DNA of 64,000 nt, from assembly GCF_024298765.1 (NCBI RefSeq), contig NZ_CP101210.1; one strand, given 5' to 3'. Shown here one piece after another: positions 51,146 through 53,154 of this stretch. This stretch comes from Escherichia coli. Its GTDB lineage: Bacteria > Pseudomonadota > Gammaproteobacteria > Enterobacterales > Enterobacteriaceae. The notes under the pieces are model-generated. The model worked only from the letters and a program-made list of their open reading frames with translations, searched no databases and had not been told where the DNA came from. Every line of letters begins with the position of its first letter. Within the stretch, counting starts at the first letter, position 1. The position numbers and the translations under genes are program-made.

Positions 51146-51509
51146 TCTTTACACCGTATATATCCGGAAACTTGCATTCGCCATATTTAAAATTTAACAT
51201 GGCTTATTTGATGATTTCTGACAAAATACCTACTGTAAATGACAATCACACTGCAACCCAAAGCATCACCAGGGCATCACATTATCGGACTGGATTCGGA
51301 ACATCTGAATGGAGGCACAGTTCCCTGGCATAAACATCTCTATGCCCAGTTGCTTTACCCGGCTGAAGGAGTCGTTCGTGTATGGGCTGGAGAAAGCGTC
51401 TGGCTAGTGCATGCCAGCAGCGCGCTTTGGCTGCCCCCACAAATGCCGCATAAGTTTGTTGCGACAGGCAACGTACTTTTAAAAACCGTACTGGTTTCAG
51501 AAGCGGAAA

Positions 51510-52566
51510 GGCTTTGTTGAATAAATCAAATTTCGGGTAAGTCTCCCCCGTAGCGGGTTGTGTTTTCAGGCAATACGCACGCTTTCAGGTATACCTGCTT
51601 TCGTCATTTTGTTCAGCGCTCGTACCAGGGCCATAGCCTCCGCAACCTGACCATCGTAGTCACGCAGCGTCAGTGCCCCCCCGAACAGCTGTTTTACCCG
51701 GTACATCGCCGTTTCCGCTATCGAGCGACGGTTGTAATCTGTTGTCCATTTCCACCGCGCATTACTCCCGGTCATTCGCTGATTAGCCACTGCACGGTTA
51801 CGGTCTGCATATTCACCGGGCCAGTAACCCGCACCTTTTCGGGGAGGGATAAGCGCGCTGATTTTCTTACGCCGCAGTTCATCGTGACATAGCCGGGTAT
51901 CGTAAGCGCCATCGGCGGCGGCTGACCTGATTTTCCGGTGGGTTTGCCGGATTAACCCGGGGAAGGCCTCTGAGTCCGTAACGTTGTTCAGCGACAGGTC
52001 TGCACAGATGATTTCATGTGTTTTACTGTCAACGGCGAGATGCAGCTTACGCCAGATACGGCGGCGTTCCTGGCCATGCTTTTTGACTTTCCACTCGCCT
52101 TCACCGAAGACCTTCAGCCCGGTGGAATCAATCACCAGATGTGCGATTTCACCCCGGGTGGGCGTTTTGAAACTGACATTAACCGACTTTGCCCGCCTGC
52201 TGACACAGCTGTAATCCGGGCAGCGTAGCGGAACGTTCATCAGAGAAAAAATGGAATCAATAAAGCCCTGCGCAGCGCGCAGGGTCAGCCTGAATACGCG
52301 TTTAATGACCAGCACAGTCGTGATGGCAAGGTCAGAATAGCGCTGAGGTCTGCCTCGTGAAGAAGGTGTTGCTGACTCATACCAGGCCTGAATAGCTTCA
52401 TCATCCAGCCAGAAAGTTATGGAGCCACGGTTGATGAGGGCTTTATTGTAGGTGGGCCAGTTGGTGATTTTGAACTTTTGCTTTGCCACGGAACGGTCTG
52501 CGTTGTCGGGAAGATACGTGATCTGATCCTTCAACTCAGCAAAAGTTCGATTTATTCAACAAAGCC
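51510..52566 (-). mobile_element. IS903-type (IS5 family, IS903 group) insertion sequence, 1057 bp, 18-bp terminal inverted repeats, 9-bp target duplication AAGCGGAAA
   Basis: Left inverted repeat ggctttgttgaataaatc at 51510-51527, right repeat as exact reverse complement at 52549-52566, identical 9 bp flanking at 51501-51509 and 52567-52575. Confidence 0.92.
51566..52489 (-). CDS. IS903 transposase (DDE)
   Basis: ORF 51566..52534; residues AKQKFKITNW...RVKQLFGG...ALNKMTKAG recognised as IS903/IS102 transposase; start set at in-frame GTG (307 aa). Confidence 0.88.
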   Translation of the reverse strand: MAKQKFKITNWPTYNKALINRGSITFWLDDEAIQAWYESATPSSRGRPQRYSDLAITTVLVIKRVFRLTLRAAQGFIDSIFSLMNVPLRCPDYSCVSRRAKSVNVSFKTPTRGEIAHLVIDSTGLKVFGEGEWKVKKHGQERRRIWRKLHLAVDSKTHEIICADLSLNNVTDSEAFPGLIRQTHRKIRSAAADGAYDTRLCHDELRRKKISALIPPRKGAGYWPGEYADRNRAVANQRMTGSNARWKWTTDYNRRSIAETAMYRVKQLFGGALTLRDYDGQVAEAMALVRALNKMTKAGIPESVRIA

Positions 52567-53154
52567 AAGCGGAAAGTGAAACGCTGGGAAAAGTTTGCTT
52601 CATGACGGGTATTTCACCCCTGTTAAGAGAATTACTAATTGCAATTAACCAACTTCCACCGTCGCAAAGTACCACAGATAAACAACAGTTACGTTTTTCA
52701 GCCCTCGAGACACTGATACTTCAGGAAATAAAAATGGGGGTGAAAATGTCACTTGAACTCCCTTGGCCAAATGATGAGCGGCTACAGCAGCTTTGTGAGA
52801 ATTTGCTAAACAACCAAGGGTATCTGCCAACACTGGATAATCTAGCGGATAAAATTAACGTCAGTAGCCGTACACTCATGCGCTTATTTGTTAAAGAGAC
52901 GGGATTAACATTTCGCCACTGGGTTCAGCAAATGCACGTTATTTCTGCAGTGACGCTTCTTGATGATGGATATTCGTTGACCAAAATTGCCCATCGTCTG
53001 GGCTATGCCTCAGCTGAATCGTTCGGCAATATGTTTAAGCGTCGAACGGGCTACTCGCCCGGTAAATTTACTCGTCGATTAACGATGCATGATTATGCAA
53101 TCACAAGGCAAATGATTTAACTTATATTTTCGTGAAATCTGTCACTGAAGAAAA

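Follow-up and report, generated by a model that had tools for sequence, protein, structure and literature searches.

The DNA analysed here, referred to below as the window, is a 64-kb stretch of an Escherichia coli chromosome. In the part under study the gene order is smrA, an MFS permease gene and an HlyD-type adaptor gene (both on the minus strand), an AraC-family gene (plus strand), remnants of abgR and abgT, ogt, fnr and uspE. The AraC-family gene is interrupted by an insertion sequence (IS), and the following features lie in and around the interruption:

48603-50117, minus strand: DHA2-family (EmrB-type) MFS efflux permease gene, 504 aa, intact ORF
50114-51145, minus strand: HlyD/EmrA-type periplasmic adaptor gene, 343 aa, intact
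51146-51238: divergent intergenic region between the AraC-family gene and the HlyD-MFS operon, 93 bp, untouched by the insertion
51239-51509, plus strand: 5' fragment of the AraC-family gene (codons 1-90 and the first base of codon 91), with the cupin domain
51501-51509: left 9-bp target duplication, AAGCGGAAA, directly before the IS; there is only one copy at the empty site of E. coli strain 104
51510-52566, minus strand (by its transposase): IS903B-type element, compared below with other copies
51510-51527: transposase-distal terminal inverted repeat, GGCTTTGTTGAATAAATC, the same as the termini of IS903B from Rts1 and IS102 from pSC101
51566-52534, minus strand: transposase ORF, uninterrupted, 322 aa with TTG 52534 as start or 307 aa with GTG 52489 as start
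52549-52566: transposase-proximal terminal inverted repeat, the exact reverse complement of the GGCTTTGTTGAATAAATC end
52567-52575: right 9-bp target duplication, AAGCGGAAA, abutting the other end of the element
52576-53120, plus strand: 3' fragment of the AraC-family gene, with the linker and the HTH_18 DNA-binding domain

The two minus-strand genes encode the parts of a predicted efflux pump. The adaptor scored above the cut-offs of the Pfam models HlyD_D23, HlyD_3 and Biotin_lipoyl_2, and reached 266.7 bits against TIGR00998, the model of the EmrA/EmrK subfamily, for which the cut-off is 390.8; on account of this last score it is classed as an HlyD-family protein outside the curated EmrA/EmrK group. 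The permease scored 404.8 bits against TIGR00711, the model of the DHA2/EmrB subfamily (cut-off 230.2), over profile positions 3-480 of 485, and was aligned without gaps to its orthologues of 505-506 aa from Kluyvera and Providencia, with 82% identity over 502 aa. Exactly the same permease protein is encoded on at least 1000 contigs. The pump genes are regarded as intact because of this full-length family match, the gap-free orthologue alignments and the number of contigs that carry the protein. In each of the five genomes inspected, RefSeq gives the MFS gene a "frameshifted" flag, and if this were right the loss of the regulator would matter little; the alignments argue that the flag is spurious. 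That the pump is already a pseudogene was considered and rejected on the strength of the same gap-free alignments and of the full-length match to TIGR00711.

In its general layout the locus resembles the EmrR-EmrAB loci, which likewise combine an EmrA-like adaptor and an EmrB-like DHA2 permease with an adjacent dedicated transcription factor. The transcription factor itself is different: in EmrR-EmrAB it is a MarR-type repressor encoded inside the operon, whereas here it is a divergently encoded cupin-HTH protein of the AraC/XylS type. The permease scored 219 bits against an EmrB cut-off of 925, and the adaptor 205 bits against an EmrA cut-off of 563; judged by these scores, the pump is an uncharacterised paralogue of EmrAB. 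The MFS, HlyD and AraC genes make up an accessory block with a GC content of 41-47%, and about 27% of the complete E. coli genomes have it. A preliminary description of the window, made from its letters, had called this region an island; the island is no more than this block of three genes. Around the intergenic region, promoter-like sites were detected at 51218-51246 (plus strand) and at 51239-51211 (minus strand), both of them matches to a consensus only.

The insertion sequence, at 51510-52566, is complete, has a length of 1057 bp and is of the IS903B type (IS5 family, IS903 group); it occurs as a single copy within the window. Its inverted repeats are perfect (18/18), each of the two 18-mers being found once only in the 64 kb, and beyond these 18 bp a weaker complementarity of the ends extends to 33 nt at 82%. 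The target duplication is also perfect (9/9). On these points the preliminary description was exact to the base: it had placed 18-bp inverted repeats at the borders of a 1057-bp element and identical 9-bp repeats at 51501-51509 and 52567-52575, which we found to lie flush with both element ends. A repeated 9-mer is by itself weak evidence, since about 8-9 other direct repeats of 9-24 nt are present by chance in the same stretch of approximately 1.5 kb; it is the position of the repeat that counts. For two positions set by the ends of the inverted repeats, the probability of a 9/9 match by chance is 4^-9, or about 4e-6. The rule of a 9-bp duplication also held for six other copies of the element that were examined. 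The 33-mer junction sequence is TTTCAGAAGCGGAAAGGCTTTGTTGAATAAATC.

The transposase ORF is uninterrupted, and its product was recognised by the Pfam models DDE_Tnp_1_5 (E = 3.8e-40) and DDE_Tnp_1 (E = 6.6e-33), as well as by NCBIfam NF033579, "IS5 family transposase", with 357 bits against a cut-off of 140. In the numbering of the 307-aa form, it contains D121 in the sequence VIDSTG, D193 in ADGAYD and E259 in IAETA, which we take to be the positions of the catalytic triad of the IS903 transposase. The exact protein was found on 227 contigs (221 in the 307-aa form and 6 in the 322-aa form), and the records of identical proteins carry the name "IS5-like element IS903B family transposase". An intact ORF for an IS903-type transposase had been proposed from the letters alone; the unbroken reading frame, the family models passed and the termini shared with IS903B and IS102 bear this out. 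With undamaged inverted repeats, an unbroken ORF and its DDE residues in place, the element plausibly retains all that is needed to transpose again and may still be mobile.

Two reference elements were used for comparison, IS903B of plasmid Rts1 and IS102 of pSC101. The Rts1 element, which is presumably the type copy of IS903.B, shares with the window copy the length of 1057 bp, the identical 18-bp termini and the 9-bp target duplication; the two are 96.98% identical at the nucleotide level, being separated by 30 substitutions and 2 gap positions, and their transposases differ in 5 of 322 residues. IS102 agrees with the window copy in length and in the 18-bp termini and aligns to it without gaps, with an identity of 92.6% (78 substitutions); its transposase departs at 20 of 322 residues. 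A nucleotide identity to the reference of about 95% or more is the rule by which a copy is assigned to the same IS. The alignments thus placed the element nearer to IS903B of Rts1 than to IS102, and with 96.98% to the former against 92.6% to the latter it is, by its sequence, an IS903B isoform. IS102 itself was ruled out at an identity of 92.6% and represents a different isoform. The surroundings of the two IS903B copies also differ. In Rts1, IS903B adjoins aph(3')-Ia, the two being located between two copies of IS26, a layout which we take to be that of Tn2680; the window copy is chromosomal and solitary, whereas the Rts1 copy is part of a resistance transposon.

Closer relatives of the element are widespread. 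Among the complete E. coli genomes, 1989 of 5426 contain IS903B-like sequences, with as many as 47 locations in one genome, and copies annotated as IS903B were 99.1-99.8% identical to the element. The best chromosomal matches (99.8%) came from E. coli of pig, chicken and human origin, and the best plasmid copies, also annotated as IS903B, were 99.4% identical. No copy with 100% identity was present in either the complete E. coli genomes or the plasmid collection, and as the best copies reached only 99.8% and 99.4%, respectively, no donor was identified.

The restored target reads TTTCA-G-AAGCGGAAA-G-TGAAA, with palindromic flanks. For IS903, a target motif of WTTYA-N9-TRAAW with a 9-bp duplication has been published (PMC2577343, Table 1), and a literature search for an IS903 target consensus yielded nothing more precise. 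Our target matches all 10 specified letters of WTTYA...TRAAW, but on either side a single additional base stands between the half-site and the duplication, so that 11 bases separate the half-sites as against the 9 printed; the set of seven sites with intact duplications from which spacing was judged is too small to fix it. Perfect matches to the motif were found three times in the 64-kb window with the N11 spacing and twice with N9, which is about the level of shuffled sequence. Because perfect matches are this rare in the window, a landing on such a site by chance is unlikely, and we count the palindrome in favour of an ordinary transposition event carried out by the transposase.

In the AraC-family gene the IS is inserted between the first and the second base of codon 91 and splits the cupin sensor domain from the helix-turn-helix domain. 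As it now stands, the 5' fragment is an ORF of 93 aa (51239-51520), the last residues of which, RLC, are encoded by the IS. The 3' fragment contains a 172-aa ORF that starts at the ATG at 52602 and keeps the whole of HTH_18. When 51239-51509 and 52576-53120 were joined, an ORF of 271 codons with zero internal stops was obtained, as had been predicted for the removal of the element together with one repeat copy. The restored 271-aa protein is identical to WP_000156573.1, annotated as "AraC family transcriptional regulator" in strain 104. Its N-terminal part scored above the cut-offs of AraC_binding (residues 27-88) and Cupin_2 (residues 25-83), and its C-terminal part matched HTH_18 (residues 180-258, E = 6.9e-22) and HTH_AraC (E = 1.5e-10). 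A full-length regulator cannot be made from the split gene, and loss of its function is the most likely outcome.

The uninterrupted allele, which the preliminary description had proposed to seek in related isolates, is present in E. coli strain 104. Once the element has been taken out together with one of the repeats, the flanking sequence (50000-51509 joined to 52576-54200) is identical to that of strain 104 at 3135 of 3135 bp, and over approximately 14.9 kb around the IS the two strains differ by 2 SNPs. Strain 104 is a chicken isolate. Within this region it carries an IS10-like insertion that the window does not have. The AraC gene was found in 1457 of the 5426 complete E. coli genomes, with an identity of at least 99% in 1454 of them, and in no case was it split into two places; the B2 pathogens that carry it include ST131, E2348/69, 536 and Nissle 1917. 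A 301-bp query across the left junction had no spanning match in any of the 5426 complete genomes, and the junction-specific 93-aa fusion ORF was absent from a collection of 15 billion proteins. The 172-aa C-terminal ORF does occur in the protein collection; 10 of its contigs were inspected, and all of them turned out to be variants by frameshift or by start call and to lack an IS next to the ORF. Two genomes that covered the whole of a 4.2-kb query were examined as possible carriers of a shared insertion and were rejected, as the IS903B that they carry is independent and sits in ogt, at its 3' end, instead of in the AraC gene. Since the junction occurs in none of the 5426 genomes, the data support an insertion that is specific to this strain and recent. 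The word "recent" had already been used of it before these searches; the complete identity of the flanks to empty-site alleles and the absence of the junction from all 5426 genomes support this wording.

The contrary reading of the element's age, that it is an old, fixed and immobile relic, could be built on the fact that no identical copy was found, the best being at 99.8% in the complete E. coli genomes and at 99.4% in the plasmid collection. A relic of this kind is very hard to reconcile with a duplication that still matches at 9 of 9 positions and inverted repeats at 18 of 18, with an intact transposase ORF whose protein is the same as on 227 contigs, with flanks of about 14.9 kb that have accumulated only 2 SNPs relative to strain 104, and with a junction absent from 5426 genomes, and we consider it extremely unlikely. 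Even less credence is given to an error of assembly, in which a collapsed or chimeric repeat would have led the assembler to misplace the IS, the true genome having an unbroken regulator gene. Many E. coli genomes do have IS903B in several copies (at up to 47 places), and repeats of this sort are well known to cause misassembly; however, neither an exact 9-bp target duplication at both ends nor a precise landing on a palindromic IS903-type target is expected from a misplaced repeat, and the probability of such an error appears next to nil. Nothing was found that contradicts the insertion itself, and the points of the preliminary description that lent themselves to a test were all borne out.

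The preliminary description had presumed that the interrupted gene encodes the regulator of the efflux genes. Homologues of the regulator in Kluyvera (79% identity) and Providencia (70%) are encoded divergently beside an HlyD gene and an MFS gene for a 505-506-aa protein, in unrelated surroundings; homologues in Acinetobacter (44%) and in one Oxalobacteraceae genome (36%) are encoded divergently beside an MFS gene alone. The divergent pairing with HlyD and MFS, or with MFS alone, is thus kept in four genera with different flanking genes. Because the arrangement is conserved in other genera, it is reasonable to suggest that the AraC-family protein regulates the divergent HlyD/DHA2-MFS efflux operon. 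A library search for the protein accession of the regulator returned no paper, and a keyword search for the regulator and the efflux cluster returned nothing.

We therefore propose, with a probability of about 0.9, that in a strain very near to strain 104 an IS903B inserted into codon 91 of the AraC gene, with a probable loss of inducible expression of the pump. The transposase made staggered cuts 9 bp apart at the palindromic target, and these 9 bp were duplicated on repair. By parting the N-terminal cupin sensor from the C-terminal helix-turn-helix domain, the inserted IS leaves the cell with no full-length regulator of what may be its HlyD-adaptor/DHA2-MFS target operon. AraC/XylS proteins of the cupin-HTH layout are mostly ligand-dependent activators, and for this reason the most likely consequence of losing the regulator would be the loss of inducible pump expression.

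The opposite effect, in which the insertion switches the pump on, might come about in three ways: by read-through from the left end of the IS, by the action of the 172-aa HTH-only product as a ligand-independent activator, or because the regulator is a repressor. Read-through into the pump operon is possible: the minus strand holds the transposase gene (51566-52534) together with hlyD (50114-51145) and the gene of the MFS permease (48603-50117), and from 51566 to 51145 this strand has no terminator-like site. The transcription of the IS903 transposase gene is weak, however, and a terminator-like hairpin is situated within the gene itself, at 52284-52266. As for the truncated product, the HTH_18 domain is complete in the 172-aa ORF, and there are AraC/XylS proteins whose C-terminal domain, taken alone, can activate transcription free of ligand; against this, no plus-strand promoter-like site was detected, at the threshold of the scan, from the right end of the IS toward the ATG at 52602, and a good ribosome-binding site is missing before this ATG. 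The insertion was moreover seen in a single occurrence, so that no signal of selection is visible. Activation of the pump thus appears unlikely. A further step along the same line would be to regard the insertion as adaptive, the HTH-only ORF and the co-oriented transposase gene together making a silent accessory pump constitutive in a poultry-associated E. coli lineage; this we hold to be quite improbable.

The proposed inactivation of the regulator has close precedents. In Klebsiella, IS903B knocks out mgrB and wbaZ by simple insertion with 9-bp direct repeats (PMC10513040, PMC9769513). The element and the way in which a chromosomal gene is inactivated are the same as in the AraC gene described here, and a simple insertion of IS903B is in this sense an ordinary and already known kind of event. 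The difference lies in the target: for the Klebsiella events a selected phenotype (resistance to colistin or to phage) was demonstrated, whereas the AraC gene encodes an uncharacterised regulator.

The significance of the finding beyond the strain itself is small. Within these bounds, the junction, shared by none of the 5426 complete E. coli genomes, provides a clean and datable marker of the lineage, and IS903B, an element better known from plasmids and from the mgrB knockouts of Klebsiella, is seen here actively reshaping E. coli chromosomes. The insertion also offers a knockout that arose naturally, in an AraC-type regulator which is uncharacterised and which about 27% of complete E. coli genomes possess, and a comparison of this strain with the near-identical strain 104 could reveal the role of the regulator and of the adjacent pump.

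The window and E. coli strain 104, which carries the uninterrupted AraC-family allele (locus L001), differ beside the mppA/pgrR region, where strain 104 has an adjoining ISVsa5 (IS10-like) insertion (L001 14906 onward) that is absent from the window (at about 59968). ISVsa5 aside, about 14.9 kb of the two sequences is identical except for 2 SNPs, at window positions 45360 and 48473.

In each of the five E. coli genomes inspected, RefSeq/PGAP annotates the DHA2 MFS permease gene of the efflux block (window 48603-50117, minus strand) as a pseudogene, with the label 'frameshifted'. 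Its 504-aa open reading frame is full length when compared to TIGR00711, and the orthologues from Kluyvera and Providencia (505-506 aa) align to it without gaps. Judged by these alignments, labelling the gene a pseudogene appears to be an artefact of the annotation. In another strain, the avian E. coli FY10 (L005), the same gene is split at about 1900-3090 by ISKpn26, a member of the IS5 family. The accessory efflux block has been struck by different IS elements in different strains.

A second IS903B insertion was found close to the efflux block, in a strain of Danish poultry origin:

L002 6078-7134: independent IS903B in the 3' end of ogt, E. coli 723_010814_2_1

This copy displays 99.05% identity to that of the window, lies about 1.6 kb from the insertion site in the window, and is flanked by its own 9-bp duplication, CGAAAAGAG.

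Other copies of the element were compared by their flanks. Among those encoding an identical 307-aa transposase (L016-L025), most are without matching 9-bp duplications, and left or right flanks are common among copies in differing combinations; this pattern suggests that in these genomes IS copies have recombined with one another or belong to composite structures. The IS102 of pSC101 (L036 6916-7972) has the same 18-bp termini as the window copy, and a comparison of its flanks revealed no matching 9-bp direct repeats. Within the window copy, the 5' third of the transposase reading frame contains a predicted hairpin:

Window 52266-52284, minus strand: terminator-like GC-rich hairpin of 8 pairs followed by a T-rich tail (consensus match only)

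Next to the AraC-family gene, the window/strain 104 lineage retains abgR (LysR) and abgT only as fragments:

Window about 53290-53650 (L001 8229-8588): abgR and abgT fragments, between the AraC-family gene and ogt

In two metagenome contigs (L007 and L008) the same AraC-family gene is followed by full abgR and abgA, which indicates that the abg operon was deleted beside the efflux block, and not replaced by it.
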